A DNA stretch of 64,000 bases from Candidatus Obscuribacteraceae bacterium (GTDB lineage: Bacteria; Cyanobacteriota; Vampirovibrionia; Obscuribacterales; Obscuribacteraceae): contig JBGAHS010000011.1 of NCBI GenBank assembly GCA_044226015.1, positions 128,001-192,000 on the forward strand, in the 5' to 3' direction. The notes below the pieces were generated by a model that was not told where the DNA came from, searched no databases, and was given only the letters and a program-made list of their open reading frames with translations. Position 1 is the stretch's first letter; each line of letters starts with the position of its first letter. Both the position numbers and the translations under genes were made by a program. This document shows positions 873 to 19,330 of the stretch, one piece after another.

Positions 873-921
873 AGAGACTACCTCAAATAAAGAACAACGA
901 CACGACTGACAAAAATATCTA

Positions 922-1947
922 TTAGGGTTGTGTGGTGCCCAGTCGGGGTACCAGACACGAAGCCTGACTGTTATTACGCAAATACATTTCCGTTCTTAAT
1001 GGCATGACAGATGCTCGGTGTGCAGCATCCTGGCTCATCAACTGCAGATTCAACATAACGCCAACGAAATTACCAAGTTCGCTTTCATTCGCTCCGTCTG
1101 CACTAAAATCTGTTTGCAGCGGCCCATTCACTGGTCCAAGTGCATACGCATTGTTTCTATGAACATACTCAAAAGCAGCAATCTTGGTCGGGTCTGCAGG
1201 ATTCAGTGGTCCAATGATGCCACTCACCAGGGTTATGGGAGAGCCTGCGGTCATCGATGCAGGCATGTTTGTGTTTGCGACCACACCACCAGCACCTCGG
1301 GCAGGCCACACAGCCATCTGAAGCTGATAGAAATTAACACCATTAGCCTGTGTCCGAGCTTGGTCTGGAACGACTTTGAAAACATAGGTATCCGTCATCG
1401 GCAGATAGATTGTTGATCCGCCAGTGATATAAGGATTGGCTCGTGGCCAGCCATTACTATCAAAAACAGGAACTTGAACCACGAGAGTATCCGGTCCAAT
1501 GCGATAAGGTCCATTTCCCCATGCTGCTGGATAATTCGGTAGAGTTACGTAAAACGGATTAGCTGCAGAGGGGAATGCTGCTGACATGATGTTAGCGCCC
1601 TCGGCAAGTCCATAAGATGGGTCTGTCCCGGTAATAGCACTTTGCCAGTCGGTAGTAACACCAGCCCCGATGGCGCCAGCATAACTGGGAGCATCCATCG
1701 ACATATTGCCCTGAATGTCTCCCAGATTTCTTGCCATTCTAACAATACGACCAATTCTATCTGCGCCGAATCGAGCGCCAGATATATTGTCGGTTCTGGT
1801 CATAAGCTTATTGCTCTCTACTACATTTATAGTGAGCATTCCCATGATTGCCATTGCAACGAACGAGAAGATCAGTGTTGCCACCAACAGGGAGATTAAG
1901 CTATCACCCTTTGCGGAACGAATTTTCTGTTTGATTGTTCTACGCAT
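922..1947 (-). CDS. PilW/PulJ-like minor pilin
   Basis: Basic leader KIRSAKG|DSLISLLVATLIFSFVAMAIM; shares LVVQVPVFDSNG and C-terminal YLRNN with 4115..5119. Confidence 0.7.
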   Translation of the reverse strand: MRRTIKQKIRSAKGDSLISLLVATLIFSFVAMAIMGMLTINVVESNKLMTRTDNISGARFGADRIGRIVRMARNLGDIQGNMSMDAPSYAGAIGAGVTTDWQSAITGTDPSYGLAEGANIMSAAFPSAANPFYVTLPNYPAAWGNGPYRIGPDTLVVQVPVFDSNGWPRANPYITGGSTIYLPMTDTYVFKVVPDQARTQANGVNFYQLQMAVWPARGAGGVVANTNMPASMTAGSPITLVSGIIGPLNPADPTKIAAFEYVHRNNAYALGPVNGPLQTDFSADGANESELGNFVGVMLNLQLMSQDAAHRASVMPLRTEMYLRNNSQASCLVPRLGTTQP

Positions 1948-1963
1948 TTAACATCCGCTCCGT

Positions 1964-2557
1964 TTAGCTTGTCAAACCATTGTCTGTAATCATCGAACTT
2001 AATCTGTACTCTCGAACGGCGCCAGACGTGTCCAAATACCTCACTGTAACTGTAGCGCTGATGGAATGAATCGGAATTGGACCCGCTTGAATTTCAACCT
2101 TCACGGTGTCGTCACTCAATCCCGTGTCGGGATTGATAGTATGGAACGTATAGGCTGAATGACCCATTACGTACTCATTGCCATTAGTGGTGGTGGTATT
2201 GCCATTGTTCGTGGTCGTGGTACTTCCAGAATAGTCCAGGTTGGTGTCATGCATCAGAGCACGAGGGAAGAGCTCATTGTTTGGATCTCCAGCTCCGTTG
2301 ACCTGGGGATAAACACTTGTCCCGATCGCATCGGAAACAACATCAAACTGTTGAACTCTAAGTTGATCGATACATTCTTGAGCCACGTTCATAGCGTACA
2401 ACTCACCTTGCGTCATGTTGGTGGCACGACGAACTTGTGTATACATCTGAGCCAGTGCGGCGGCGATGATGCTTGCTACTAAAACGGCAACGAGTGCCTC
2501 AACAATGAAACTACCTTTTTTCGATCTCTTACGTTTGGGAGTAATCGAATTTCTCAT
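1964..2557 (-). CDS. PilV/PulI-like minor pilin
   Basis: Class III signal KRSKKG|SFIVEALVAVLV (Glu at +5), AMNVAQECIDQLR helix, C-terminal VTVRY...Y.LSS.I..NG; GAGG/GGAG RBS. Confidence 0.75.
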   Translation of the reverse strand: MRNSITPKRKRSKKGSFIVEALVAVLVASIIAAALAQMYTQVRRATNMTQGELYAMNVAQECIDQLRVQQFDVVSDAIGTSVYPQVNGAGDPNNELFPRALMHDTNLDYSGSTTTTNNGNTTTTNGNEYVMGHSAYTFHTINPDTGLSDDTVKVEIQAGPIPIHSISATVTVRYLDTSGAVREYRLSSMITDNGLTS

Positions 2558-3408: not shown

Positions 3409-3569
3409 TGGCTGACCTGATGCAATTTAATAAACCGAAAATCATCAGTTGAAAAACATATTTTTCCCAAAAGAAAAAAGTTTTCTCCATTTATTGAAAA
3501 AATACGTTTCCCCGACGTTGCCAAGTGGTACAAAAAGTATGTCCCCTCTCCCCCGCATCGGATTTTTCC

Positions 3570-4115
3570 ATGCATACAATCAAACCGCGACGGAGAACTC
3601 CCCCAGGTTCTGCGCGCAGGAGCACATACGGCAATTCCCTCGTGGAAATGGTCGTTGGTGTTCTTGTTAGCAGCATATTCGCTGCAGCCGTGGTGCAAAG
3701 CATGTCACAAGGTCTCTCACTCACGAGTGGAGCCCAGAATCAAGTGGTAGCTTCAAGCATGGCGCAGGAAGTACTCGATGCTGCGCGCAATTTGCCTTTT
3801 GCAACTTTGACCTCATATCAGGGGTCGTGGCCGCTTATCGTGCAGTTACAGCAGGGCGATGGTCCTATTAACTGCCCTCCTTATCCGCGTCCTCTGTTGC
3901 TGGACAATTCTAATTTCACCTATGGAACTTCGCAGTATGGCTCTCAAGCCATCACAAACACTCTGACAGCTAATACTTGTTCTGCTACTGAAGATATCGT
4001 CAGTAACAGCGACAACACTTGCACTGTCACCGTCACCATCAATTGGAGAGATAGCACGGGCAATCATTCATATCAGGTAAGCACACGCATCGCACAAAAT
4101 GGAATCGGAGTCTGA
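3570..4115 (+). CDS. PilV/PulI-like minor pilin (ATG 3570 preferred over track start 3525)
   Basis: RRSTYG|NSLVEMVVGVLV (Glu +5), ASSMAQEVLDAAR, VTVTINWRD...YQVSTRIAQNG; paralog of 1964..2557; stop overlaps next start. Confidence 0.75.
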   Translation: MHTIKPRRRTPPGSARRSTYGNSLVEMVVGVLVSSIFAAAVVQSMSQGLSLTSGAQNQVVASSMAQEVLDAARNLPFATLTSYQGSWPLIVQLQQGDGPINCPPYPRPLLLDNSNFTYGTSQYGSQAITNTLTANTCSATEDIVSNSDNTCTVTVTINWRDSTGNHSYQVSTRIAQNGIGV

Positions 4116-5119
4116 TGAGTAAAGCTGATCAAAAGCAATCTCTAAGAAACCAGCAAGGTGAAAGCCTTGTTGGTTTGCTCGTTTCATTGACGGTTTCTGC
4201 TTTTGTCGCTGCTGGAATGATGGGACTTGCATACCTTAACTCATCTACAAATGTCAGAGCCATCAACAAGTGTGATTCTGTCAACGCCGCTAGAACTGCA
4301 GTAGATCAGATCAGCAATACGGTGCGCTCGGCTCGCTGCGTTGGCAGCATGTGGGGAACGGTTCAACCTATTCAAGTTCCGCCTGTTGATTGGTCAGCGC
4401 TCACCAGTGGCGCCAGCACGAATACTGCCGCAATAAATTTCAATGTATTCCCCAGCCAGGGCAATTCGACAGGTTACATAGACTTTCCCGCACCTGGCGA
4501 TCCGTTTTACGGCAGCAATCCGATCACAGGTAATGGTACTCCCCCTGGTGGCTGGCCTAGTTCTGATGCGTGGGTCAGCGATTCCGATGTTTCAGATCCA
4601 GCAGCAAGATGGCATTGCAGCCAGACCTGTCTCATAGTGCAGGTTCCAGTATTTGACTCAAATGGAATTCCAATGGGAATTCCGTGGCCACAAAATCAGC
4701 CACTACAAAACATACCTGTTATGGACACTATCGTTTATCGAGTTTCACCAGACCTTTCACCTGAAGCACCACCCAACACCTTCAAGATGGAGAAGGCTGT
4801 ATTTCCAGCACAAGGTGTTCCGCGTCCTGCAGGGTATTCTGCGAATTCACAAGCTCAAACTATATTAAAAGGAATCATTGGACCCTTCGACCCGAATGGT
4901 ACTGGCTCTCTCCGCATTTTCCAGTACCTGAGCAACTCAAACCCACAAGCAGTTTGTTTCCAACCTACCACCACAAGCGGTGCCACAAATATAAGCAGCA
5001 TCGGTGGAGTTTCCATAAACGTCGAAGTGCTGAGGCAGGAGGCTGGCAAATCGCATCTTGCTTCTCTCCAATTCAAAAGCGATGTATACATGCGCAACAA
5101 TGTGGCCTTCACAAACTAA
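4115..5119 (+). CDS. PilW/PulJ-like minor pilin
   Basis: RNQQG|ESLVGLLVSLTVSAFVAAGMM; LIVQVPVFDSNG; C-terminal VYMRNN; paralog of 922..1947. Confidence 0.7.
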   Translation: MSKADQKQSLRNQQGESLVGLLVSLTVSAFVAAGMMGLAYLNSSTNVRAINKCDSVNAARTAVDQISNTVRSARCVGSMWGTVQPIQVPPVDWSALTSGASTNTAAINFNVFPSQGNSTGYIDFPAPGDPFYGSNPITGNGTPPGGWPSSDAWVSDSDVSDPAARWHCSQTCLIVQVPVFDSNGIPMGIPWPQNQPLQNIPVMDTIVYRVSPDLSPEAPPNTFKMEKAVFPAQGVPRPAGYSANSQAQTILKGIIGPFDPNGTGSLRIFQYLSNSNPQAVCFQPTTTSGATNISSIGGVSINVEVLRQEAGKSHLASLQFKSDVYMRNNVAFTN

Positions 5120-5162
5120 ACATGTTCGAACCGATCAAATCCCTCCCCCCAGGAAACAGATC

Positions 5163-7310
5163 ATGATAAAGCGCCGAAAATCCGAAAGAGCTAGCTCGCC
5201 ACCATCATCCAGAGATGAGCGCGGTATATCTTTAGCTACAATCCTTGCAATTGGCACAGTCTCTTCATTGTGGATAACTGCAATGATGGCAATCGTTATG
5301 CCCACATACCAGAAGACAGCAAGCTTGAAATCAGGCACCGCAGCCAGAGCTGCAGCAGAAGCAGCGCTCGACTACACATTGAACCAAATGAACAACTCTA
5401 TATCGCAGGGACAAATTTCTAGTTATGACTGTGACCCGACAACTGTAGGTTCGAGCAAACTGAGTACAATAAGTCCGTCAGCACTTGGTCTTTCCCAGAG
5501 CAATGCCACCATTAAAGTTTTGGTGCAAAACGTAGCCCTGGCAGGACCACAATCAGGCTCTTTGACGCAGCCTATGATTTTCGACCCTCAACTTGCACAA
5601 CTCATTAACAGCGGCAAGTTAGCAAATCCATACAGACAACTCACTGCATCTGTGACTATTGGAAGTGTGACAAAACTTTTGCGAGTGACGCTGGTTCCTC
5701 AATCTGTCCGACCAAGCAACGGCTCTACAAATGGGACGGTTTTTCCGACCATGCCCTTTGCGATATATGGAGTCAACCAAACTGCCTTTGTTGGATCCGT
5801 TGGACTAAATAGTTACGTTGGCAAATCAAATGGACATGGGGCCTACGTGGACCCTCCCGCACCGCGTCCAGCCATGTTAGACCCAAGGGTTCGCGCTGAC
5901 TTCGGAAGTGGTACCACTGTAAATCAGGTGGGCTATGGTAGCAGCTTCAGTGGCATGGCACTGGGCGGAACCCAAATGGAATTTTGCGACCCAATCGTCA
6001 GCGGAACACAGGCAGCAAGCGCAATAGCACAAATGTACAATGCTTCTGCTGTGGCAAAAGCACCCTGGGTTGATGTTTACGATAACGTTTATTCCAATTA
6101 TCCAAACGCAGGTGACGTGAGCAATCCCGTCAAAGGCATCGTTTACGCAGACAAGACTACTGCAGGTTTGCCGGGCTCTGGCTACATTCCAAGAGGCTGG
6201 GATAACTCGACCGCTAATGGGTCAAATCAGAATAGCTATAACAATGTTTTTGGCTTAAGCAATACTATGGGATATTATCCATTCGACCATGCATCATGGG
6301 GTGATGCGAACTACAATGCCTCTACGATGTATCCCAGCGTCGCCGACAATAACAATATGGGAGGAGTGCTTTCAAGCGCACAACAATACTCAAAACCACA
6401 GATTCCGCCAGTTCCCACTTCACCTAGCACCGCAGTGCATTTAGGAAATATCAACCTCTCAGGCTCTGCTCAAATAGTAATCACTAAAGCAGCCCCCATG
6501 CCTACAGCACAAATTGGCAGTATCAGCAAGGGCACAATACTGCTTCCGCCAGGCGACTACAGCATTACAGGGCTGTCGATGACAGGCACATCAAAAATCA
6601 TAATCGACCCAACAGTTCAAAATCCGACAAACTTTTACCTCGAAGGAAACGTTTCCACCAATGCTGCTGTACCCGCAGTAAACATCGCAAACACATGCGA
6701 CATCAATATGAGTGGACTAATTCAAACTCCGGGTACAGCGAGCCTCTCAATAGGCAGTACCGGCTTCAACCTCAGCGGCAGCACTGGGGAAAATGGACAC
6801 GGTAGCACCATAAGCGGCACCAGCACTGCTATCAACAGAACATCTTCTATTAATGAGATTGCGGGCTCAGCTGGATTCTTGAACCTCTACTACAATGGAC
6901 CCGGCTCAGGAGCTTCTGCTGGTTCGCCATCAACACCACCAAGCACCACTTTTGCTTTTAATGGCAAACAGCGAATGACAGTGTTTGCACCAAACGCCAA
7001 CATCCTCATAGGCGCAGGCACAGACTATACGCGCCCGAGCGAGTTTTTCGGTGCTGTGGTTGGCAACTGGGTAACCGTGACTGGACCCCGACTAGCCAAC
7101 AATATTAGTTTCACTGCGTTCCATTACGATGTTAAATTGCGCCCGAATGGAGGAGCATTTACAAACCCAAATCAGACAGTTTCGGTTTGGGGTAATCCCA
7201 CTTCCGGAGACTGGACAATAGCTGGTGGCTACAAGGCAGTCACCTGGCAAGAAGCAAAAATACCGAGCAATGACCCAAGCGCCTGGTCGAATACAAGCAC
7301 CTGGCAGTAA
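5163..7310 (+). CDS. Large PilX-like protein with C-terminal beta-rich adhesin-like region (start probably ATG 5163)
   Basis: AGGA RBS at 5151; RDERG|ISLATILAIG; ARAAAEAALDY (PilX N-terminal pattern); C-terminal VFAPNANI...FFGAVVG...FHYD...VTWQE typical of PilX-like tip proteins. Confidence 0.7.
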   Translation: MIKRRKSERASSPPSSRDERGISLATILAIGTVSSLWITAMMAIVMPTYQKTASLKSGTAARAAAEAALDYTLNQMNNSISQGQISSYDCDPTTVGSSKLSTISPSALGLSQSNATIKVLVQNVALAGPQSGSLTQPMIFDPQLAQLINSGKLANPYRQLTASVTIGSVTKLLRVTLVPQSVRPSNGSTNGTVFPTMPFAIYGVNQTAFVGSVGLNSYVGKSNGHGAYVDPPAPRPAMLDPRVRADFGSGTTVNQVGYGSSFSGMALGGTQMEFCDPIVSGTQAASAIAQMYNASAVAKAPWVDVYDNVYSNYPNAGDVSNPVKGIVYADKTTAGLPGSGYIPRGWDNSTANGSNQNSYNNVFGLSNTMGYYPFDHASWGDANYNASTMYPSVADNNNMGGVLSSAQQYSKPQIPPVPTSPSTAVHLGNINLSGSAQIVITKAAPMPTAQIGSISKGTILLPPGDYSITGLSMTGTSKIIIDPTVQNPTNFYLEGNVSTNAAVPAVNIANTCDINMSGLIQTPGTASLSIGSTGFNLSGSTGENGHGSTISGTSTAINRTSSINEIAGSAGFLNLYYNGPGSGASAGSPSTPPSTTFAFNGKQRMTVFAPNANILIGAGTDYTRPSEFFGAVVGNWVTVTGPRLANNISFTAFHYDVKLRPNGGAFTNPNQTVSVWGNPTSGDWTIAGGYKAVTWQEAKIPSNDPSAWSNTSTWQ

Positions 7311-7315
7311 TTAAA

Positions 7316-7714
7316 TTAGGCTGCTCGACGAAATAGCGACGAGTTCACAAGAAACCGAAGTACTGGCAGCTGATATGGTTTAACTAGTTTCTGAGCCTCT
7401 TCTACGTCAACAAATTTTACCTTCTTCAAGGCGCCAGTGGCATGCGGTTTGCCTTCTACCATTTCGGCCGCAAAACAGGTCATTGTTTCGCACTTTCCTT
7501 TTTTTACAGAACCAACAAAAGCAAGATTTGCTGGTGCATCCATTTGAGCCTCTTCTTTGAGAACGCGCACAGCTGCTTCAGCGGTAGACTCAGCAACTAA
7601 GAGACGCGAGCGTGGAATACTCCATGACCTTCCGTTAAATACGAGAAGCACTTTGGTGCCTAACAAACACCTACGATAAATAACTATTCCAGCAGTCGTT
7701 TTCATAGTTTTCAT
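7316..7714 (-). CDS. NUDIX-fold protein with degenerate Nudix box
   Basis: TAGIVIYR...VLLV...WSIP(RS)...ESTAEAAVRVLKEEAQM; Nudix-box Gly and the Glu of RE are substituted. Confidence 0.65.
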   Translation of the reverse strand: MKTMKTTAGIVIYRRCLLGTKVLLVFNGRSWSIPRSRLLVAESTAEAAVRVLKEEAQMDAPANLAFVGSVKKGKCETMTCFAAEMVEGKPHATGALKKVKFVDVEEAQKLVKPYQLPVLRFLVNSSLFRRAA

Positions 7715-8040
7715 AAGTCCTTCCTCTCAACGAAAGTACTGACATCTGCGCATGATGACTGGGGTCTGGGCTTTTAGTTCCGCTTTTGAAAAGGTTCAGA
7801 AAAAAGTCCTCATTTTCAAAGCGCAAAAAGATGCTGCAAAAACAATTTTCCATTTAATGAAGACGAAAGAAATCAAAACTAGGAAAAACCCCTATTTTTT
7901 CGGGGATCCTCGATACAGCTGATTTCTAGAAGGTTCTATGATTTTTACTGTGATAGCGAATTCGACGTTCTCATCCTAAAAGAACCAACTTTCACCACCC
8001 GCAGTATCAACCGCATCATTATAAAACCGAGGAGAATGAA

Positions 8041-8652
8041 ATGAATACTCAAGTAAGCATGAAAAAGAGTTATGCAGATGTACCCACTGCAGACCTCGTA
8101 ATCATGGCGCAGAGAAAAGATGAAGCGGCACTGACTGAATTGCTAAAGCGACACAAAGCGTTCATATCCAACAGACTTTATAAGTTAGCACCAGATTGGA
8201 AGGATCAGTCAGATCTCATTCAAGAAGTTAATATCCGCGTTTGGCGATTCATCGGACAACTTAAGAAGGCTGCATCATTCCGTACCTGGCTATCCCAACT
8301 GATTCTGAACGTCTTCTACGATGAGCTGAGAAAGAGACCACGCGACTTTTATATGGTGTCTCTTGATGAGCCAATGTCAGACGACTCAACTGACACGCGT
8401 GATATTAAAGACGCATGTCAGCTTCCAGATGACGAACTCCTGGGCAAGGAACTGATGGCGGTGTTGACTGAAGCTATGAAGGACATTCCGGAACAGTTTA
8501 AGCAAGCTCAGTTACTCCGCGACATAAAAGGACTTTCCTATGAGGAGATTGCAAAGCTTACAGGTACTGAGCTGGGAACGGTGAAGTCACGTATTGCACG
8601 GGCGCGCTTGAGAATTCAACAGCGCGTAGCACCTTACCTCGAGTGTGCATAA
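8041..8652 (+). CDS. sigG: ECF (group 4) sigma-70 factor, cyanobacterial SigG-like
   Basis: LAPDW.D..DL.QEV.IRV, F..WLS....N.FYDELRKR, region 4 GLSYEEIAKLTGTELGTVKSRIARAR; GAGGAG RBS. Orthology to sigG is from recalled motifs. Confidence 0.8.
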   Translation: MNTQVSMKKSYADVPTADLVIMAQRKDEAALTELLKRHKAFISNRLYKLAPDWKDQSDLIQEVNIRVWRFIGQLKKAASFRTWLSQLILNVFYDELRKRPRDFYMVSLDEPMSDDSTDTRDIKDACQLPDDELLGKELMAVLTEAMKDIPEQFKQAQLLRDIKGLSYEEIAKLTGTELGTVKSRIARARLRIQQRVAPYLECA

Positions 8653-8689
8653 CTAAATCAATCAAGTTTAAATAAGCAGGAAACAGAGG

Positions 8690-8720
8690 GGCAAGCATGC
8701 GAAAGCAGCTTGCCTTTCTG
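8690..8720. terminator. Hairpin between convergent sigG and giant protein 1
   Basis: GGCAAGC-a-TGC-GAAA-GCA-GCTTGCC followed by TTTCT. Confidence 0.55.
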
Positions 8721-8721
8721 C

Positions 8722-11700
8722 TTAGTTTTTGAAGACACCGTGAGATGAGGTTACCAATTGCAGGCATGCTGCCATCTTGAGTAGTCTTGCTCCCAGATGT
8801 TTTTCCGCGGCTTCCGAGCTGTGAATAACATCATTTAGCAAATGGCTCGATGACATCAAAGAAAGTAAGGAATACTCTGCTAACTTGGCGTTTATTCCAC
8901 TGGCATTCTTCTCCACGGTTTCTTTGCGCACGGCCACAGAACTCTTGCTTCCAATTAACAGTCTTTGACCAGCACCGACAACGAACTCGCGGTCGCCAAC
9001 CTTAACCTTAACGGCACCCCAGCGAGATTCACAAAGATTGAATAGTTCAAGCTCAGTACCATCAGATTTGAGCAGAGCCACTCCATCGCCACTAATTTGT
9101 ACTTCACCCACAGCGCATTCCACTTTGCTTAGCTTGTGAGAATCAAGGATCATTTCACCTGAGATGAAGTGGAGTCTATCCGAGGAATGTCTCTCCAGTT
9201 TGCAAGCTCGTGCATAAACACTTCCATGTTCGCTTGCAGATTTCTGGATACTCTCAACGTCTACTTCAACTTTGCCTTGAACTGTCAATGGAGAGCTGCT
9301 AACACAAGCAATCGGTGTGAACTCTTTTGGATTTGAGTTGCTAGCCTCGACGGCACTTGCATTGACTGTTTGTTCCTCCAGTTTCTTGAACAAACTGCGG
9401 ACGGCACTGATATCAGTGCGCAGATTGCTGGACGATGCGTTAAACAAGACAGGCATCGCGACAGTTGTTCCCACAGTGGCGCTTGGTGCAGGTGCGGATA
9501 TGGCTTGAGACGATAGAATTCCAGTTGGAGCCGGCGGTGGATCCGCCAAAATGTATACTCCACCTGAAAGAACAATGGCAGATTTGTCTCTGCTGCCAGT
9601 ACTAAATACGATATTAGCGCCCCAGGCGTCCAACTCATTATTCTTGCCGTTCACAGTGATACCATTGGCACCAAAGTAAGCTTTTCCGCCCCATTTCTCG
9701 CTCACACTTGTGTTCGAGGGAATAGAACCCCTTATCGGGTTTGTTGGAATGGCACCTACAACGACTCTCACGTTGCCTAAGCCGTTGCTCTGACTGTCAG
9801 AAAGTGCAATCAAGGAGACATTTTTTCCAATCTTTATAACGCCAGAGGACTCGTTAGCATTTTGCAGAGTGAGATTACCTTGTCTTGCGACAAGCTCTGA
9901 GTTTTTTGCAACGTTCAAGTCACCTTGACTCTGCAGGTAAATGGAACCATTTCTGGTTTCCACATTTTGTACATTTAGCGCACCACTCGACTTCACAGTG
10001 AAGCTGCCACCAGCACTCGAATCGTCCAAATTCACGTTTCCGGTCACGGCTATGTTTACCAGGCCGTTACCCCAGGTCGACGCTCTCAGGTTTTCAGCTT
10101 TTACGGCTAAGGCTAAAGTGCTGCTTCCAATATTGCCCCTGTCAGATCTCAAAACGAGATTATTAGCCGTAATCAATCCACCTTGTTGAGAAATATTGCC
10201 TCTTCCATCAGCATTTATTTCAAGACAGTCAGCGACAAAATTGCCATTGAGGACAATATTGCCATCATCCTTGGTGCGCAAGACCACCTCAGTACCCGAA
10301 AGGGACCCGGAAACCTGCAAATTTCCCTCCCTGCTCGTAAATTTGTAATTCTTTCCGGCTATGTTTCCAGATACAGACAGATCACCGTCTGCTCTAAGTC
10401 TGGAATTATTGCCCATGGAAATCGTTCCAGCATTTACCGTCAAGGAAGAGTCATCAACTCTAAGGCGTACTCCGTTGCTTAAGGTCAATGATGGAACATC
10501 AACGATTACCTTTCCATTTGCTCCTGCATTGAAAGTTCCATTTGAAGTCAAAACCAGCGCTTTTCCGCTTGTTCCTATACTAATATCGCCAGTAGCTTTC
10601 AAGCTCAACCCTTCACCGACACTGTAAGAACTGACAGTGACAGCACCTTTGTTGCTGATGTGCGCCTCAGCAGCTGTGCTTACTGAAAGGGTTTGGGTTT
10701 CTGTGTGAATCGCATTTTTTGAAGAGCCGATATCTCCGGAACCCGACATCAGAGTGATAGACGCTGCTTTCAAAATTCCGGCAGTTTGTCGAATATTGCC
10801 AGAACCTATCGCAGAGACAAGTAAATCATTGATAACGATAACGTCAGCGGCAAGGGTTATCGTGCCATTGTTAGCAAGAGTTCGAATTATCAAACTGTTT
10901 GCATTTACATTTTGATTGATCAGCAGGTCTCCTGATGCTTCGATAATTGTCTGAGACCCAGCGTTAGGATTGTCTATCAAACCATTATTCACAAGCGTGC
11001 CACCAGGAGTCAAAACGCTGACAGTGTTGTCGCTGTGCAAAACAACGCTTGATGCAATTGTCACATTCGCATTGCTTGTAGATATGGTGACAGGAGCACC
11101 AGCGAAGTTAAGAGTTGATTGTCCTGCTCCAGCATTATTTTGCACGAAGTTTATCGGGGCAGCATCCGGAGCCGAGATTGTTATTGCGCTTCCACCACTG
11201 GTGCTTACCGAAGCAGCACCTGCCGGAAGTCCAAATGTAATACCTAGATTTGGCAATCCTACAAAATTGATGGATGACCCCTTGGCAGTGATTGCTGAGT
11301 TCGAACCAAAGTTGAGCAAGGGGGCCGTGAATGAAACGGAATTAGCACTATCGATGAGTATGCTTGCGCCATCCAGCAAATTGATTGAACCGTTAGATTG
11401 AAAGTTGACTTCACCATTCACGCCAGCATTGAAATGCGGCGTACCAGAAACAGAAATGCTGTCACCAACGTTCAACGCTAGAACGTTTATTGTTCCAGAA
11501 AGCCCAGATGAGAAGCCTACAGTTCCAGCGCCAGCAATAGTAATACCGAGAGGATCCTGAAGTACTATCACTCCATTACTTTGAGAAGAAGTAATGTTGC
11601 CGTCCAGATGAAGGGTTCCACCATTGACGTTTATTTGAATGTTTCTATCTGAACTCAGGTTTAGACTTGCCAGAGAGGTGTCAGCAGCACTGCTGGTAGT

Positions 11701-14700
11701 AATCAATCTTCCACCCTGCACAGAGAGATTTGCTATACCCAGTCCACTGCTGGTGAAGACCAACGGAGCTCCAGTGCCACTTGCGAAGCTTACGTCACCG
11801 CCTGCACTCGCGATGATGTTGTTGGACGAACTTCCCGTTGCTGTAATTGTAAGTGGTGCACCCAAGCTGGATTGGACCACCAAGGCTTGTGTATCATTCG
11901 TAGCGGTTATACTGCTACCGCTGCCAAAATTTAAAGCGTTTGTAGATATGTTCAGTTTAGTACCGCCAGCAGCAGTCAAGCTAACACTTGAACCAAGATT
12001 TACTCCAGAACTAGACAAGCTTGCTGTTTGAACTGTCAGAGAGCCCGTGGCTCCGGCGTTGACTACGTAAGATGTATTGAAATTCACGCCATTAGAGCCG
12101 GCAAAAGTGACCGCTGAATTAGCCCCACTCGCAAGTACATTGCCATTGCTACCGGACAAATTCAATATGGCTGAAGAATCCACTAGCAGCTGAGCTCCAG
12201 CCGCAGAAATTTGAATGCTGCCATCCAGAATCAAGTTATCTGTGTGAAGCGTGATATTTCCCGAACTGGAACTGAGCTGATTACCCAGCCCGATCTGAAT
12301 GTTTGTGCCGCCGCCATTTGAGGCGAGATTTACACCATTGTTACCGCTTACGGAGCTGAACATTGAAATGTTACCGTTAGCGCTGAGATTCAAAGTTCCT
12401 GCATTTAGATTTGCTTCTATCGCAAGGTCGCCATCATTATTTAGCTCAAACGTACCGGCAATAGTCGAGGTACGCAAGTCCATCTGGCTTGCATTATTAA
12501 TGTATACAGAGCCACCACTATTAACTTGAAGTTCAAGTACGTTTGCTTCGATTGGTGCGGACTTAGACCCTATATTTCCAGATTGAGAGTTGAGAACGAG
12601 AGTACCAATTCCTGTCGTGCTGGAGCCTACCTGATTTATATTGCCCTTGCCCTGAACGCTTAGAACAACAGTTGGAGAACTAATATCTGCCCCGAGATTG
12701 ATGCTTCCATTTCCAACGGTTGATACGTTCAATTGCTTGGCGCTAATTGGAGAATTAATATTTACGTCGCCACCATTGGCTATTATTTCAACGCCGATAT
12801 TTGTACTGGTATCAAAAGCATCAGAATCAATATTTACACCAGAACCCAGATTTATTGCACCATTAGAAGTGCCCATACTGACAGTCGCACCCGAGACTAC
12901 CAAATCTGCATTGCCACTCGTGTTCAAAGATAAGGAACCGGTGCCGCTGGGTTCAATCTGCAGAACACCAGGTCGAACTGAATTGCCCTGGCTTATGCTG
13001 AAGGTAACGGTTGAACCATCGGCAAAGTCTAACGAAAGTGAGCCAGACTGAGTACCACTGTTCAGCTTCAAAAGACCAGCATTGTTCATTGCCAGATTCG
13101 CATTTCCAAGGAAATGAATACTTGGAGCACCCAATTCTATTGCACCCTGGCTAGCGTTGAGACTGGCGCCTGCCGCTACATACACTGCCGTGGAAGCTTT
13201 CAGAGTGATATTTCCGGCACTTGTGCTGATGTTCTGTGCACCCAGCTTGGACACAGCCCCGTCAAGAACAACCGAATAGTTCTTTGCAGAGCCGTTGAAA
13301 TTTCCAACAACATCGCCTAGACCACTGATCGATACATTTGACGGAGAATTAGCATTAATTGCACCCATGTTTTGATCGCTTGAACCTGACAAGTTCACTT
13401 TCTGGTTCATTGCCACAAGCAAATCATTTGCACCGGAAGAAAGACTGAGCTTTCCTCCATTTGCACCACTAGCGGAAATCGTGCCAGTGCCTTCCACTCC
13501 GGCGTTGCTGTGTCCTATATTCATGCTCAATGAGGAATTCTGCGTCAGCGAAATGCTACCTCCATTCTGAGCACCATCAGCAATGACATTCGCGTCTGTG
13601 ATATCAATAACGCCGCCCTGGCTTGACCCTGCGTCAACAGAGATGGTACCGCCGTTTGCACTGGCAGAACTTGAATTGATTGTGGCCGAATTCAATGTGA
13701 CATTGCGGCTTGCACTGAGCAGAACAGAGCCACCATCGCCTCCCTGAGAACTGACATCAATTTGACTTCCTTTTCCTATTTGAAGATCTGCATTGTTTCC
13801 TCCAGCTGCCAGTGAAACTGAGCCGCCGTTGCCAGTGCCGGTGGACGATGCTACGAGAACCGACCCGTCAGCAAGGTTAAGCTGCGGCGCCATCAAATCA
13901 ATTTGTCCGCCCTTGCCAGAACCGGCACTGTTAGCCGAAAGCACTCCTGATAAATTCAGGCTGTGGTTTGCCGAAGCAAGTTGCCCGGGCGCTGAACCGC
14001 CTGCAGTCAACGAGACTTTGCCCCCATCACCATCGACCGAGACACCCACATCGATTCCCGAGCCTGCAACAGACAGGTCGCCAGCAGCGGTGATGATAAC
14101 GGCTCCGCCGTTGCCGCCAGCGGAGCCGCCACGAGCACTCAGGTTGAACCCACTTCCATTACCGATGGCAAGGTCGCCAGCAGAACTGCTTGTACTTCTC
14201 ACATTCACGGTGATCGTTCCGCCGTTACCTGTTCCAACACCATCCGCCCGCAAAGTGCCGTTAACCTTTAGTGAGCTGCTGGAAGCGCTGGCATTCAAGC
14301 CCGTATCAATGTTTATGCTGCCACCACTGCCATTTTTTGCTGCAGAGCTAACATCAACTACATCAGCGTCAATCGACATCGAACCATCAGAAATAAGTAT
14401 GATGGTTCCGCCGTCGCCGCCCTGGCTACCGCTTCTTGCGGAAAGCTTAGCCTGCCCAGAGGCAAGAACAAGGTCTGTTAATGAATGAAGTTCGATTGTT
14501 CCACCAGGAGCAGAGTCAGCTCCAGCAGCATTAAGATTCAAGGCTCCGTGAATTCCGTCAGCAAAAACAAGGTTGATCGTTCCACCTTTCTTTCCGGCAA
14601 AGTCACCGCCTTTAGTGGTGATGGTCAAATCATCAATATGAAGACTTCCGACAAGTTCAACCGATGAGGCACCGCCACCATTGCTGGTGATGTTCATGCT

Positions 14701-17523
14701 TTTAGCGTCAACAACAGAATTTGTTCCACCAATAGACACGAAGCCTGCACTCGCTATTCCATGACCACTGGTGTCAGCAGTAAGCGAACCAACTTGTATT
14801 TGCGGCGAAGACATGCTTAGAGTGCCACCTGAGTTATTGCCGCCTCCTGCAGCCGAAACCAGGATGTCACCTCCTGTAATACCGGTGGACGAGCTGAAGT
14901 TGACCTGCCCGCCCTCACCAGAACTTCCACCATTGGCACTGTATTGAGTACCACTTAATACCAGCGCACCATCCGAAACTAGAAGGATCGTGCCGCCATT
15001 TCCCGTATTGGAATTGATGACAATCGAACCAGCATTGATACCACCGGTACCATGATTGCTAGCAAAAATGGTTCCACCAATTCCGCCATCAACAGAAATA
15101 AATCCAACCGAGTTCTGTCCACCTCCAGTGTTAATTCCCAGGGCAGGAGTACCATCAGTAGGCTGAGCATTAACATAACTGCTTATGCTCACAGTGCCAC
15201 CCTGTCCGAGTGGATTGGAGTCGATGATAGAGTTAACGCTCACCCCCGCAGCGGAGTTAATGACAACAGATGCACCGTTGGCTGTGATGCTGCCAACCTC
15301 AACATCACTCTTGGATGTCGAAAGTGCAACTGTTGAGGATGAACCGCTAGCTCCAGTGATTTCTGCACTACCAAGCGAAACCTTGTCAGATTCGACCATG
15401 TCGACTCCAAACAAACCTGCAGTCAGGTTTACAGACCCGCCCGCACCACCGGTAGCGCCATTCGCTTTAATGTCGACTTTGCTCAGATCTATATCGGCAA
15501 CACCGTAAGTCGTCAGGAATGAAATTGAGCCCCCAAAGAGTCCGCTGGCCTCAATAGCTGACTTCCCAAACAAGACAGAGCCACCGTTAACGAATGCACT
15601 GATTCCGCCGCCGGTGCCATTTTTCGAGCTCAAATCCATTGAGCCATTTCCAACAAACAAACTACCAGCCATAGCCTGAATTGTTAGAGTTCCGCCATTA
15701 GCAGCAATGCTGGAAGCATTTATGGATGCATTTCCCGTGCCACCAAGGTTTATGTCGCCAGCTTGAGCCACCACATTGATAGAGCCCGCATTACCAGTGT
15801 CACTGGATGTGTTTATCGTGACACCATTCTGCATAGTGATAGCAGCTGCGGAACTGAGTGAGACAGATCCCGCGTTGCCTCCCAAAGCGCTAGTATTGAT
15901 GGTCAGAGGACCAGAACTGATTATTGAACCTGCATTAGAATTGATGGAAACGTCGCCCGATTGCGCACCGGTAGTGCTGGTGATAAGCGAGCCAGACAAA
16001 AGTATTGGTCCATTTGCAGTTAACGAAATATTGCCAGAGCTGGCGCCAGAAGTCGCAGTGGTAATCGCGATTATCGGCACAGTTTGAAGATCGATCATGC
16101 CTCCAGCGTTGAGGATCACACTGCCGGTTGCACCGCTGTTGGCGCTTGTGCCAATGTAGGAAACATCTTTGTTGATGATGTTGCCACCAGCATTGATAAT
16201 GAGAGCATCCAGACCGGAAAAGATCCACTCGCCGCCAAATTGCGACATTTCAAGAAAGACATCTCCACCAGATGAAATGGTGGGGTCTCCAGACATCTTT
16301 AAGGCACCAACATGAAGATCGCCAGTTTGCGCAGATAAAGCGGCTGTTCCACCAATCAAATTAGTCTGACCTAGAATAGAATGAACATCTACATTAATAT
16401 GTCCATCACCAGAAAAAACATTTAGTTGCTGCGAAATCCAATCGCCACCGATCAGAGATGTATCAAATTTGTCCGTGAAGAACTGGTCACGAATATTGAT
16501 ATTGCCATTAAGAGCCTGGAGAACTCCGCCAGTGTTGTTGATAGTCAAATTTTGTGCGACCTGACTTGCAACATTTATATTTCCAGCCATGGCATTAACC
16601 ATACCAGCGTTTTGAACGGCCGCTGAAACAATATTGACGTTAGACATTGCTTGCATCAGAGGACTTGGTCCACTCATTCCGGTTGGCAATGCATTTATGA
16701 CTGAGCCACCGGCATTCAAATTCAAATTGGCTGCACTACTGATGACACCAAAGTTGCTAATGTTCTGAACCGCGTTTAGACTCAAGCTCAAGTTGTTAAT
16801 TAGATTACTGAAACCACTTATTCCGCCCTGCGGAAGCATGGAAGTTAGCAAACCACCCTGCATGTTGTTGATATTTTGAGCAGAGATCACTGCACTCATA
16901 ACCTGGTTATTGTTTGATACAGCAAAGAAATTTCCCGAATTTACGAGGTTTCCGGTGATGTTCAATACACCAGATTGACCAAAGTTCCTCACTGCTGTGA
17001 CACCGGTAGGGATGACCAGGTTAGTGACATTACGTCCGGAAAGCGTGAATTGTCCGCCTGTGGCGACTCCCATAGCGTCGAGAACCAGGCTCTGAGTTCC
17101 CCCACCCAGAACCTGGCTCAATGCGACACTTTCTGCTGGTGTCAGTTTCATACCTGGTGAAACTGTCACTGTCGACCCCCCGACAGTGATAGCACCAGAT
17201 TGCTGAGCACCAGCAGTAACCGTTTTGTTCGAAGAACTTAAGTCCAGGTCTCTGGCTGCGTAAGCTGCAGGCAAAACAAACTGAAATACGAGCACTGACA
17301 CTGCACTCAGTGCGTAGGGCATTGATGCCGGCATCGAGTTATCGCAGTATCGACGCTGCTGTGTAGTTGTTCGCTGCCTCGCGAACAAATGCTCGCGCTG
17401 ACCATGTGGATCTGATCCAATAGAAAAAGGGGACTTCGCAGTCATATGTAGCACCTGCCTTGGGGGGAAAGGCAATCGCTTCCGAACCTGCTCGGAGCAA
17501 TTGGCGGGCTTTTGCGCAAACAT
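8722..17523 (-). CDS. Giant exoprotein 1 (up to 2933 aa), filamentous-haemagglutinin-like beta-solenoid adhesin; start uncertain (17523, 17445 or later)
   Basis: Uninterrupted ORF; signal-like MPYALSAVSVLVFQFVLPAAYA; G/S/N/T-rich GNGGxIxI repeats; N- and C-terminal modules shared with the two other giants. Confidence 0.8.
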   Translation of the reverse strand: MFAQKPANCSEQVRKRLPFPPRQVLHMTAKSPFSIGSDPHGQREHLFARQRTTTQQRRYCDNSMPASMPYALSAVSVLVFQFVLPAAYAARDLDLSSSNKTVTAGAQQSGAITVGGSTVTVSPGMKLTPAESVALSQVLGGGTQSLVLDAMGVATGGQFTLSGRNVTNLVIPTGVTAVRNFGQSGVLNITGNLVNSGNFFAVSNNNQVMSAVISAQNINNMQGGLLTSMLPQGGISGFSNLINNLSLSLNAVQNISNFGVISSAANLNLNAGGSVINALPTGMSGPSPLMQAMSNVNIVSAAVQNAGMVNAMAGNINVASQVAQNLTINNTGGVLQALNGNINIRDQFFTDKFDTSLIGGDWISQQLNVFSGDGHINVDVHSILGQTNLIGGTAALSAQTGDLHVGALKMSGDPTISSGGDVFLEMSQFGGEWIFSGLDALIINAGGNIINKDVSYIGTSANSGATGSVILNAGGMIDLQTVPIIAITTATSGASSGNISLTANGPILLSGSLITSTTGAQSGDVSINSNAGSIISSGPLTINTSALGGNAGSVSLSSAAAITMQNGVTINTSSDTGNAGSINVVAQAGDINLGGTGNASINASSIAANGGTLTIQAMAGSLFVGNGSMDLSSKNGTGGGISAFVNGGSVLFGKSAIEASGLFGGSISFLTTYGVADIDLSKVDIKANGATGGAGGSVNLTAGLFGVDMVESDKVSLGSAEITGASGSSSTVALSTSKSDVEVGSITANGASVVINSAAGVSVNSIIDSNPLGQGGTVSISSYVNAQPTDGTPALGINTGGGQNSVGFISVDGGIGGTIFASNHGTGGINAGSIVINSNTGNGGTILLVSDGALVLSGTQYSANGGSSGEGGQVNFSSSTGITGGDILVSAAGGGNNSGGTLSMSSPQIQVGSLTADTSGHGIASAGFVSIGGTNSVVDAKSMNITSNGGGASSVELVGSLHIDDLTITTKGGDFAGKKGGTINLVFADGIHGALNLNAAGADSAPGGTIELHSLTDLVLASGQAKLSARSGSQGGDGGTIILISDGSMSIDADVVDVSSAAKNGSGGSINIDTGLNASASSSSLKVNGTLRADGVGTGNGGTITVNVRSTSSSAGDLAIGNGSGFNLSARGGSAGGNGGAVIITAAGDLSVAGSGIDVGVSVDGDGGKVSLTAGGSAPGQLASANHSLNLSGVLSANSAGSGKGGQIDLMAPQLNLADGSVLVASSTGTGNGGSVSLAAGGNNADLQIGKGSQIDVSSQGGDGGSVLLSASRNVTLNSATINSSSASANGGTISVDAGSSQGGVIDITDANVIADGAQNGGSISLTQNSSLSMNIGHSNAGVEGTGTISASGANGGKLSLSSGANDLLVAMNQKVNLSGSSDQNMGAINANSPSNVSISGLGDVVGNFNGSAKNYSVVLDGAVSKLGAQNISTSAGNITLKASTAVYVAAGASLNASQGAIELGAPSIHFLGNANLAMNNAGLLKLNSGTQSGSLSLDFADGSTVTFSISQGNSVRPGVLQIEPSGTGSLSLNTSGNADLVVSGATVSMGTSNGAINLGSGVNIDSDAFDTSTNIGVEIIANGGDVNINSPISAKQLNVSTVGNGSINLGADISSPTVVLSVQGKGNINQVGSSTTGIGTLVLNSQSGNIGSKSAPIEANVLELQVNSGGSVYINNASQMDLRTSTIAGTFELNNDGDLAIEANLNAGTLNLSANGNISMFSSVSGNNGVNLASNGGGTNIQIGLGNQLSSSSGNITLHTDNLILDGSIQISAAGAQLLVDSSAILNLSGSNGNVLASGANSAVTFAGSNGVNFNTSYVVNAGATGSLTVQTASLSSSGVNLGSSVSLTAAGGTKLNISTNALNFGSGSSITATNDTQALVVQSSLGAPLTITATGSSSNNIIASAGGDVSFASGTGAPLVFTSSGLGIANLSVQGGRLITTSSAADTSLASLNLSSDRNIQINVNGGTLHLDGNITSSQSNGVIVLQDPLGITIAGAGTVGFSSGLSGTINVLALNVGDSISVSGTPHFNAGVNGEVNFQSNGSINLLDGASILIDSANSVSFTAPLLNFGSNSAITAKGSSINFVGLPNLGITFGLPAGAASVSTSGGSAITISAPDAAPINFVQNNAGAGQSTLNFAGAPVTISTSNANVTIASSVVLHSDNTVSVLTPGGTLVNNGLIDNPNAGSQTIIEASGDLLINQNVNANSLIIRTLANNGTITLAADVIVINDLLVSAIGSGNIRQTAGILKAASITLMSGSGDIGSSKNAIHTETQTLSVSTAAEAHISNKGAVTVSSYSVGEGLSLKATGDISIGTSGKALVLTSNGTFNAGANGKVIVDVPSLTLSNGVRLRVDDSSLTVNAGTISMGNNSRLRADGDLSVSGNIAGKNYKFTSREGNLQVSGSLSGTEVVLRTKDDGNIVLNGNFVADCLEINADGRGNISQQGGLITANNLVLRSDRGNIGSSTLALAVKAENLRASTWGNGLVNIAVTGNVNLDDSSAGGSFTVKSSGALNVQNVETRNGSIYLQSQGDLNVAKNSELVARQGNLTLQNANESSGVIKIGKNVSLIALSDSQSNGLGNVRVVVGAIPTNPIRGSIPSNTSVSEKWGGKAYFGANGITVNGKNNELDAWGANIVFSTGSRDKSAIVLSGGVYILADPPPAPTGILSSQAISAPAPSATVGTTVAMPVLFNASSSNLRTDISAVRSLFKKLEEQTVNASAVEASNSNPKEFTPIACVSSSPLTVQGKVEVDVESIQKSASEHGSVYARACKLERHSSDRLHFISGEMILDSHKLSKVECAVGEVQISGDGVALLKSDGTELELFNLCESRWGAVKVKVGDREFVVGAGQRLLIGSKSSVAVRKETVEKNASGINAKLAEYSLLSLMSSSHLLNDVIHSSEAAEKHLGARLLKMAACLQLVTSSHGVFKN

Positions 17524-17667
17524 CTGGGGGAGATGTTACACGGATAATGGGAGGGGACTGGCGTCTATATACCCGGTTGCCAAGAGATCGAATCAGATGT
17601 TTTCCTACAATTTCGAAAACAAGAAATAAAAAGTCTTGTCAGCAACTGCGGACAGCCCAACTGGGGA

Positions 17668-17696
17668 TTTCCACACAAAAATTAACAGCATATAAG
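17668..17696 (+). promoter_or_regulatory. Putative sigma70 promoter for intergenic RNA
   Basis: TTTCCA (17668-73) - 17 bp - TATAAG (17691-96). Confidence 0.45.
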
Positions 17697-17702
17697 GTTT
17701 TA

Positions 17703-17913
17703 GATAGTTTTCCTGGGGGAAATATATATCTTGGTCTGACATATCGGGAAAATCAAACAGTGAAAACGCTCTGGGGGGAGGGTTTACGCGGTTTGTGAAC
17801 GAGAGGCTTTCAGCGCTCATCCTGAATGTAAGACCAAACTAAACTGGGGGGTAGGCGCAATAACCTTGCGCCGAGCAGCAGTGGAGGACCGAGTTCTCCA
17901 CTGCTGTTTTTTT
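17703..17913 (+). ncRNA. Candidate structured small RNA with three CUGGGGG motifs
   Basis: Nested stems by eye: TTGGTCT 17731-37/AGACCAA 17831-37, ACAT/ATGT, TCGGGA 17744-49/TCCTGA 17820-25, CAAAC 17754-58/GTTTG 17791-95, GGCGCAA/TTGCGCC 17854-72; ends in a strong intrinsic terminator; no convincing ORF. Confidence 0.6.
17876..17913 (+). terminator. Rho-independent terminator
   Basis: CAGCAGTGGAG-9 nt-CTCCACTGCTG (11-bp perfect stem) followed by T7; no protein gene ends here on + strand. Confidence 0.85.
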
Positions 17914-18025: not shown

Positions 18026-19330
18026 ATGGCTCGACTGGTACAGAAATTCGGCGGCAGCTCGGTCAAAGACAGCAAGCATATCCAAAATGTTGCTCAAATA
18101 GTCGCAAACACATACAAAGCAGGAAAAGAACTTGTCGTCGTAGTGTCGGCTATGGGAGAAGCCACGGACCAACTACTGGAGCTGGCAAGTCAGGTCAGCG
18201 ATGTGAGCGAAGCAAGAGAATTGGATGTTCTGCTCGCCACTGGAGAACAAGTATCTATTTCCATGCTAGCGCTCGCATTGCAGAGCATGGGTATGAAGGC
18301 TCGTTCATTCACAGGACCGCAAGCAGGAATAATTACGGACGACACGCATGGATTTGCGCGTATCAAAACTGTTCATCCTAGCAGAATCGAAGCCTCGCTC
18401 AGAGCCGGTGAAATTGCTGTAGTAGCAGGGTTTCAAGGTATGACCCGCTCAAGCGAATTAACTACTTTAGGAAGAGGCGGCTCAGACACTACAGCAGTTG
18501 CTCTAGCAGCAGCGCTGAAAGCTGAGTGCTGCGATATCTACACTGACGTTGATGGCGTCTACTCAACCGACCCGCGCACAGTTAAACAAGCAAAAAGGTT
18601 AAGCGCCATTTCTTACGACGAAATGCTCTCTCTCTCATCTCATGGTGCGCAGGTGTTGAATGCTCGCTCGGTCGAGTTAGCAATGAAAAACAAAGTAGCA
18701 ATTCGTTGTCGCTCAACATTTGCCCCCGATGACCTCGGCACCCTGGTCTGCAGCAGAGATCAAACTCCGAGTTACCAGGTTTGTGGTGTAGCTTGTGACA
18801 GCTCACGGGTGTCTTTCAAATTAGATCAAATATTCGTTTCATCTGATACCATATCCGGTGAAGAGATAGATAAGCACCATGCGAAAGTTAACGCTTTGAT
18901 TGAACAGCTAGAAGAAATTGGCGTTCCAAAAGAAAAGGTCCTCTGTCACAAGGGGGACGACTCGGTCACCAGAGAAATCGAGTTAAACTGTGAAAAACGC
19001 ATTGCAAAATCAGTGCAAAAAGCATTAGAAATCGAATTTCCTAAAGGCGAAGTGAGAGTTGACCGCAGTGTTGCGACGGTGTCGATTATCGGAACCGGTG
19101 TACACGCAGACAAGCGATTGCGCAGCGACTTTTTGAAAACCTTAGCTGATGCAGAAATTACTGTCAGTATGATGATGGCTGATGAACTAAGCTTGTCTGC
19201 AGTCATACCAGAAATGCTGAAAGATGAAGCTATCCGCAGAGTACACAAACGCTTTTGTGAGGATAGCAACACCGAGGAGACCTTTCAGGGACAAGCAGAC
19301 GTAAAAGTAAGCGCGGGGAACATGAAATGA
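18026..19330 (+). CDS. lysC: Aspartate kinase
   Basis: VQKFGGSSV, VVVVSAMG, TTLGRGGSDTTAVALAAAL, IYTDVDGVYSTDPR; C-terminal ACT-like region. Confidence 0.95.
   Translation: MARLVQKFGGSSVKDSKHIQNVAQIVANTYKAGKELVVVVSAMGEATDQLLELASQVSDVSEARELDVLLATGEQVSISMLALALQSMGMKARSFTGPQAGIITDDTHGFARIKTVHPSRIEASLRAGEIAVVAGFQGMTRSSELTTLGRGGSDTTAVALAAALKAECCDIYTDVDGVYSTDPRTVKQAKRLSAISYDEMLSLSSHGAQVLNARSVELAMKNKVAIRCRSTFAPDDLGTLVCSRDQTPSYQVCGVACDSSRVSFKLDQIFVSSDTISGEEIDKHHAKVNALIEQLEEIGVPKEKVLCHKGDDSVTREIELNCEKRIAKSVQKALEIEFPKGEVRVDRSVATVSIIGTGVHADKRLRSDFLKTLADAEITVSMMMADELSLSAVIPEMLKDEAIRRVHKRFCEDSNTEETFQGQADVKVSAGNMK

Follow-up and report, generated by a model that had tools for sequence, protein, structure and literature searches.

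A predicted G-loop RNA and its candidate C-rich target tracts beside giant-1 and pilV-like genes in an Obscuribacteraceae bacterium

The Locus

The window, a stretch of 64,000 nt (G000:C5:128001-192000), comes from a Candidatus Obscuribacteraceae bacterium whose genome (G000) is 8.19 Mb and 92% complete. The Obscuribacterales are non-photosynthetic relatives of cyanobacteria. We describe a predicted non-coding RNA of ~184 nt, the G-loop RNA (17730..17913, + strand), and C-rich tracts in the mRNAs of two neighboring genes, giant-1 and a pilV-like gene, with which it may pair. The original prediction held that G-rich loops of a small RNA (sRNA) pair with C-rich motifs at the starts of pilin and adhesin genes. 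The locus comprises a three-gene prepilin-type operon (3570-7310, +), a minus-strand giant secreted-type gene, 580 nt of intergenic sequence and an aspartokinase gene. Gene starts are from purpose-made gene calling on the genome (5851 genes).

The first gene of the operon (3570..4115, +) encodes a pilV-like minor pilin with a weak match to TIGR02523 (E 0.0013, under the cut-off). Its orthologues in three genomes are 74-82% identical. The pilW-like (4115-5119) and pilX-like (5163-7310) genes follow (4115..7310, +) as open reading frames (ORFs) that are syntenic with the RNA in G003, G005 and G007. Neither has a Pfam or NCBIfam match, and they are labeled on the basis of gene order and of N-termini of the prepilin type.

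Giant-1 (8722..17445, -) encodes a 2907-aa secreted-type protein, a putative adhesin, with 16 paralogues in the genome. It has no Pfam or NCBIfam match, and filamentous haemagglutinin repeats are only a weak lead (score 0.79). Its start, taken from alignment, is most likely the ATG at 17445 rather than that at 17523, because the N-terminus (MTAKS/MTGKS/MTSKS; MKTVKS in G002) and the upstream AGGCAGGTGCT are conserved in 7/7 genomes. The lysC-like aspartokinase gene (18026..19330, +; PF00696 and an ACT domain) is a neighbor only.

The G-Loop RNA Gene

The predicted fold of the G-loop RNA consists of a closing stem (UUGGUC/GACCAA), a three-way junction, a hairpin bearing a first G-rich patch (seed 1), a linker bearing a second (seed 2), a GCGC hairpin and a terminator. 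The fold z-score is -7.2, and none of 200 shuffles was equally stable. The alignment holds seven sequences; pattern scans of genome and metagenome collections yielded only four homologues already included, plus chance matches. Across three helices, 98.6% of the 140 cells are paired (33-52% in slid controls) and 5/20 pairs carry two-sided changes. Helix shuffles matched the count of two-sided pairs in 50/500 cases and the other main measures in 0/500, values that are inflated by kinship.

BLAST found the intergenic element in 4/7 genomes of the same genus. A covariance model built from five sequences matched 7 of the 104 family genomes searched, two of them outside the training set and all within one genus. 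Under stricter filters, G001 (91% complete) gave no match to the model. In a LysC tree the seven RNA-bearing genomes form a single clade (support 98/95), and G001 falls outside it. The homologues across the clade have no small ORF in common, so a shared small peptide is not supported. Rfam returned no match in the window at the gathering score, and four chance-level matches at E up to 10.

A predicted SigB/SigF-type promoter, AGGTTTTA-N14-GGGAAA (17695..17722, +), precedes the RNA with identical spacing in 7/7 homologues, and an A(A/T)GGTTT-GGGAA promoter-like pair is kept in all seven. The promoter matches the GGTTT-N14-GGG(T/A)A consensus and its spacing. It also resembles the Bacillus subtilis SigB consensus (RGGXTTRA-N14-GGGTAT) quoted in the accessible part of PMC2532724 and the J-Box in that of PMC6495340. 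The genome encodes two SigF-like sigma factors that score below the family cut-off, and an Hfq of cyanobacterial type that scores at the cut-off. A promoter of this type likely drives the G-loop RNA. At the other end is an intrinsic terminator-like hairpin with a U-tract (17873..17913, +); a hairpin with a U-rich tail, of differing sequence, occurs in each of the seven homologues. Both RNA ends (17730 and 17913) are predicted.

Seed 1 (17765..17788, +) is a hairpin with a GGGG loop and a G6 at 17773-78. Four pairs of its 8-pair stem show two-sided changes among the seven sequences, and the loop is predicted unpaired in 7/7. Seed 2, CUGGGGG(G) (17844..17851, +), lies in the interdomain linker and is kept in 7/7. 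The conserved G-tracts of the RNA region are thus two, at 17773-78 and 17846-51; the predicted -10 element shares bases with a G-tract at 17715-19, and another near 17663 is not conserved. The G-rich loops first proposed do belong to an independent structured RNA with accessible G seeds, but only seed 1 is a loop.

The RNA unit points toward lysC in three genomes and away from it in four, within the same lysC/giant-1 gap, and promoter, stems and terminator flip together as one unit. The LysC tree does not fix the number of flips. We rejected an invertible switch: a 13-nt inverted repeat flanks the RNA here and none does in three other genomes. Identity with 6S RNA was also rejected. Although similar in length, the RNA folds into a junction with two hairpins, not one long hairpin with a central bubble, and RF00013 had no match anywhere in the genome.

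From sequence comparison, it is well supported that the G-loop RNA gene encodes a real, previously undescribed and conserved folded RNA. A predicted promoter and intrinsic terminator of its own, conserved structure and the absence of a conserved ORF are what would be expected of a trans-acting sRNA.

Conserved C-Tracts in Neighboring mRNAs

Two C-tracts of the giant-1 leader are conserved in 7/7 genomes. One (C6-8; 17462..17467, -) lies just 5′ of the predicted Shine-Dalgarno sequence AGGUG (17456-52). The other, (T/A)GTCCCC (17549..17558, -), stands at the predicted 5′ end of the mRNA, right after a conserved GGGTATA (17574-67). The pre-Shine-Dalgarno tract is predicted 0.65-0.99 unpaired and the 5′-end tract 0.78-0.96, and AGGUG is predicted mostly paired in 7/7 (0.22-0.35 unpaired). 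The predicted seed-1 duplex falls within -26..-14 and never covers AGGUG. None of the 16 giant-1 paralogues has a run of five or more C (C5+) at -200..+60, as against two C-tracts in the giant-1 leader, and C6 at -35..-10 occurs in 12 of the 5851 genes. GGGTATA also precedes many unrelated genes in the genome, so the giant-1 and pilV promoters may be of the housekeeping type. The giant-1 leader (17561-17445, -) holds further conserved blocks, with GTTGTTGGCGCATCCAGCC in most relatives, and may be a structured leader.

The pilV-like mRNA also has two tracts. At its predicted 5′ end (3541..3554, +), TGT(C/G)CCC follows a GGTAC element in 4/4 orthologues, and the tract shrinks to C4 in G003 and G005. 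Within the coding region a CCCCCA-loop hairpin (3594..3611, +) contains CCCCCAGGT, invariant in 4/4, and is predicted in all four orthologues though the stem sequence and flanking codons differ. Here the original prediction had placed TCCCCCAG at 3599-3606, in an AGAAC/GTTCT hairpin over codons 10-13, and this is correct, the codon numbers applying if the start is ATG 3570. Its second C-rich sites at 3541-54, 17558-49 and 17473-57 were likewise found, and it is these that are conserved.

We did not obtain a strict pilV orthologue in G002 or G004. G006 lacks this operon at the locus, and its paralogous operon beside giant-1 carries two C-tracts; the equivalent paralogue has no C5+ in G000, G003 and G005. 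Outside the clade, neither G001 nor G035 has a C5 at the corresponding gene starts.

The window holds two divergent paralogous pilV/W/X-like operons, at 3-2557 (minus) and 3570-7310 (+), with C-tracts only in the giant-1-facing one. An ECF-type sigma gene lies at 8041-8652 of the window and has a close paralogue at G000:C11:1011766-1012377 (E 6e-115). We did not see it between pilX and giant-1 in the relatives compared.

In G025, a G-tract hairpin stretch (L076:11990-12160; z -2.0) is divergent from the syntenic giant gene. It has no RNA model match and no counterpart in 103 other genomes, and is a possible distant analogue of the G-loop RNA.

Seed Matching and Genome-Wide Scans

Ranking the 5851 genes by fit to seed 1 (the 579 with a C4 were scored, the others set to zero) placed pilX 1st, giant-1 13th and pilV 44th. 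The post hoc P for 3/14 local genes ranking as seed-1 targets is 2e-4. The 12-mer of the pilX match (below) occurs three times in the 8.19 Mb genome, and 2/173 RNA 12-mers are exactly complementary to some start region. Species-matching tests used 720 permutations and left out G005, which nearly duplicates G003. At the giant-1 site before the ribosome-binding site, seed 1 of the same species gives a better fit than most permutations (34/720). The four seed-by-mRNA-site tests gave 34 and 54 of 720 for seed 1 and 192 and 120 for seed 2.

CCCCCAG occurs nine times in the window: three sense copies, all in 5′ regions as originally noted, three on the strand opposite the RNA or its promoter, and three antisense copies inside genes. 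Pilin and adhesin genes were not borne out as a genome-wide target class. A C-tract at -45..0 is present in 2/77 giant genes and in 2/70 prepilin-like genes (p about 0.02, one being the discovery gene), the latter class being set by a rough pattern that misses the window pilV and pilX and includes some non-pilins. We rejected a genome-wide pilin/adhesin regulon, since the sense motif is not enriched at starts and the extra candidates are not conserved. A TadE/G-like gene on contig C6 was also rejected as a target; it has two C5 tracts here, and a C5 is found in 0/7 of the homologues shown. The evidence points to a local circuit, with two targets and a few species-specific extras.

Several other features were seen in the genome. 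There are 77 genes of >1500 codons, the longest with 14,392; many resemble one another and begin with signal-peptide-like sequences, and Pfam gave no match for giant-1 to giant-3. One of the 77 encodes a 3324-aa giant (G000:C3:89122-99096, minus) with a C6 at -23, a 10-nt match to seed 2, and a C6 at +34. It was rejected as a conserved target, as we found no orthologue in seven genomes of the genus. An intergenic stretch at G000:C6:77329-77580 contains tandem units of ~50 nt with a C5-6 tract in each. Two CCCCCC-T/A-GGGGG palindromes, possible regulator sites, lie upstream of a gene at G000:C11:1224765-1224812.

A Possible Local Pairing Circuit and Its Alternatives

We give roughly even chances to a local circuit in which the G-loop RNA pairs with the giant-1 and pilV-like mRNAs at two points each. 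The RNA would be made as an sRNA, driven by a SigF-type promoter of its own. Its two G-rich patches would base-pair with the C-rich patches conserved in both mRNA 5′ regions, the G4 loop or the linker nucleating and 7-11 bp then forming. Pairing would likely tune the stability and translation of both mRNAs, and a C-rich RNA encoded elsewhere in the genome (below) could serve as a multivalent decoy for the G-loop RNA. As to sign, we lean slightly toward stabilization or activation, on three grounds: each predicted 5′ end carries one of the sites, the duplex at the other site always leaves the predicted Shine-Dalgarno sequence uncovered, and the sRNAs RoxS and FasX offer precedents. Repression by crowding the ribosome is nearly as likely. 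The best-supported sites are the giant-1 and pilV C-tracts, which are conserved beyond chance and mostly unpaired (7/7 and 4/4), and this part of the proposed sRNA-target circuit held.

The sites on which the original prediction leaned most are weak, and with them begin the points that weigh against such a circuit. CTGGGGGGAGGG at 17771-82 is indeed the exact complement of CCCTCCCCCCAG at 5141-52 (+), overlapping the pilX-like ribosome-binding site. This 12-nt seed-1 complement is species-specific: it is missing in 3/3 strict orthologues, G007 having a C4 and a C5 elsewhere. TCCCCCAG at 17531-24 (minus) does sit in a CATCT/AGATG hairpin (17519..17537, -) with a C5 loop. This hairpin occurs in 0/6 homologous leaders, and a position abutting the giant-1 ATG is not supported; with the start most likely at 17445, the site would lie within the leader, 78 nt upstream. 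The seed-1 loop exposes four G only. Seed 2 is predicted 0.57-0.76 unpaired in 5/7 homologues and 0.06-0.18, that is paired, in 2/7. The pilV-like coding tract also encodes a conserved Pro-Pro-Gly. With the tract before the ribosome-binding site occupied, the predicted cost of opening the ribosome site falls in 3/7 giant-1 leaders and is about unchanged in four. Outside the clade, the syntenic giant gene of G025 has no RNA model match and still has a C6 ~33 nt before its start, and the pilV-like 5′ region of G096 has a C5. Because all RNA-bearing genomes form one clade, the co-occurrence of RNA and C-tracts counts as one event. G and C homopolymers pair with any such tract, which weakens the evidence from complementarity, and no species-matching test survives correction for six tests. 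Finally, positional enrichment of sense CCCCCAG at starts failed to appear: 11/384 copies lie within 50 nt of a start genome-wide against 13.9 expected, and the same was seen with first-pass starts.

The most serious rival is that the G-loop RNA is a sponge like RosA of Bacillus subtilis, with a C-loop RNA as its main partner. The latter would act as an anti-Shine-Dalgarno sRNA in the manner of RoxS, 6C and sX13, and the mRNA C-tracts would serve otherwise. We consider this unlikely, yet it must be taken seriously because a candidate C-loop RNA is present in the same clade. We found it in a scan for intergenic C-tracts, at G000:C4:374723-374958 (+; L121:1546-1780). In G000 its predicted loops contain four C7-8 tracts, and it also has a U-tract and a long 3′ stem (fold z -6.0). 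It is conserved in G002, G003, G004, G006 and G007 (L122-L126), with 3-4 C5-9 loops and a highly conserved 3′ stem. It occurs in 6/104 genomes, all among the seven that bear the G-loop RNA, the seventh of which is 70% complete. Rfam gave no match for it, with four sub-threshold hits. In G004 a perfect 10-bp helix joins seed 2 to loop 1 of the C-loop RNA; helices are otherwise 8-10 bp. G-rich ribosome sites exist as potential targets, given that the -25..-1 region of genes is enriched in G6 tracts (17 versus 4.4 expected). RosA itself, in the accessible part of PMC8216469, is a 229-nt RNA whose single-stranded G-rich regions bind C-rich sRNAs. However, seeds and C-loops carry no species-matching signal (662 and 378 of 720), and whole-RNA cofolding of the two was no better than shuffles in 6/6 genomes, by a method that cannot model kissing loops. 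The major pilin gene was rejected as a C-loop RNA target, its G-rich ribosome-site tract not being consistently conserved. We found no conserved G-rich target at major pilin genes, where the search was made. A sponge would also leave the conserved C-tracts of the neighboring mRNAs unexplained.

Two further observations concern the C-loop RNA and G-rich ribosome sites. A palindrome, TTCCAA-N6-TTGGAA, lies just upstream of the C-loop RNA (L121:~1505-1525) in 6/6 genomes and is likely a regulator site. At G000:C1:755482-757303 a SigF-like gene immediately precedes a gene that has a G5 ribosome site. The N-terminus of the product of the latter resembles PilT.

A poly(C)-binding protein might instead regulate the giant-1 and pilV mRNAs, with the C-loop RNA as its decoy and the G-loop RNA masking loops or unrelated. 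CsrB follows such a logic, as a multi-site decoy RNA for a regulatory protein. Both mRNAs share with loop 3 of the C-loop RNA an unpaired UCCCCC(C)A(A)GG-like motif, several similar loops within one RNA look decoy-like, and the C6 at the G025 giant gene stands without an RNA model match. The G-loop RNA, however, lies directly beside mRNAs that bear its complement. No candidate protein was identified; only Rho was searched for, with no match over the cut-off in this 92% complete genome, and a Rho-site reading was rejected on the same result. We regard the protein as a rather poor prospect.

It is improbable, in our judgement, that the RNA is real and its complementarity incidental, the C-tracts being kept for local reasons such as leader structure, transcription start sequence or Pro-Pro codons. 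The lack of genome-wide enrichment, the poor conservation of most flagged sites and the restriction to one clade would all fit, and both 5′ tracts stand where a promoter could constrain the initial transcribed sequence. Yet four separate tracts in two transcription units are conserved and mostly unpaired while their flanks diverge, and the giant-1 paralogues are devoid of C5+.

The alternative raised with the original prediction, a DNA-binding protein that recognizes CCCCCAG/CTGGGGG in either orientation, is very improbable. The element does flip orientation between genomes, and antisense CTGGGGG is slightly commoner near starts (20/384 versus 13.9 expected), as is also expected from G-rich ribosome sites. 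However, promoter, stems and terminator move as a unit, covarying stems flank the G-tract, the pilV tract sits in a preserved hairpin, and outside the homopolymer the flanks are not fixed. A role as riboswitch or attenuator for the aspartokinase gene, suggested by the position of the RNA 112 nt upstream of lysC on the same strand with a terminator at its end, is ruled out because the unit points away from lysC in 4/7 genomes; Rfam has no match, and no model match was found near lysC in 28 other-lineage loci (one weak unrelated match arose in a chance locus).

A bolder version of the local circuit, doubtful but worth stating, is a clade-specific code of G-loop and C-loop RNAs. In it, a SigF-driven G-loop sRNA would grip adhesin and minor-pilin mRNAs at two points, by C-loops built for the purpose, and the four-loop C-rich RNA would titrate it.

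Comparison with Known Systems

GcvB carries a long single-stranded G/U-rich region that pairs with C/A-rich sequence upstream of the Shine-Dalgarno sequence, and it controls a large regulon. The G-loop RNA has a like seed-site chemistry, here with a pair of short G tracts and two conserved candidate targets, both local. RsaI of Staphylococcus aureus contains G-rich tracts, and the seeds of FasX are pyrimidine-rich. FasX and RoxS belong to an unrelated phylum, and Rfam gave no homology between them and the G-loop RNA. In the accessible part of PMC12675982, FasX of Streptococcus pyogenes is one sRNA that controls pilus and adhesin mRNAs. RoxS protects the yflS mRNA by binding at its extreme 5′ end (accessible part of PMC5419742), and its seeds are described as pyrimidine-rich (PMC8216469, also in part), unlike those of the G-loop RNA.

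The 6C/B11 (PMC6486639) and sX13 (PMC3771888) RNAs, and RNAIII and RsaE as cited there, are in the available portions of these papers likewise structured, with short unpaired homopolymer patches and G:C pairing near starts. The targets of Xanthomonas sX13 include pilH (PMC3771888, in part). Relative to 6C, sX13, RsaE, RoxS and RNAIII the polarity is reversed here, with G patches in the RNA and C patches in the mRNA. Unlike for 6C and sX13, pairing here would involve dedicated mRNA tracts next to the Shine-Dalgarno sequence rather than the Shine-Dalgarno sequence. The G-loop RNA is not a member of the C-rich-loop sRNA families: its patches are G-rich, it has no Rfam match, and it is the separate C-loop RNA that has such loops. 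The homopolymer-loop sRNAs of the papers cited here rely on C-rich loops, since ribosome sites are rich in G. For a regulator with G seeds, the targets would have to evolve dedicated C-tracts, and the giant-1 and pilV 5′ regions appear to have done so. Such tracts would let one RNA single out one among ~17 paralogous giant surface proteins.

Cyanobacterial pilus genes are under SigF/SigJ control (PMC2532724, PMC6495340), and GGGT/GGGAA-type -10 elements are found here at the RNA, giant-1 and pilV. The accessible text of both papers mentions no such sRNA. A literature search whose coverage largely excluded subscription papers found nothing on small RNAs in the Obscuribacter/Vampirovibrionia lineage and no bacterial work pairing a G-rich seed with a C-rich target. 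If the bolder code of G-loop and C-loop RNAs is correct, it would be a first sRNA network for non-photosynthetic cyanobacterial relatives. Two new RNA families with exact sites make the circuit testable in a surrogate host.

RosA of Bacillus subtilis, in the accessible part of PMC8216469, is like the G-loop RNA an independent RNA of ~200 nt whose G-rich regions are single-stranded, and in both cases the genome also encodes an RNA with C-rich loops. The G-loop RNA seems to differ from it in that cofolding and permutations gave no sign of a long or species-matched duplex with the C-loop RNA, and it differs in that adjacent mRNAs carry conserved complementary tracts. If the bolder code is real, it would be a RoxS/RosA circuit with the polarities of regulator and sponge swapped.

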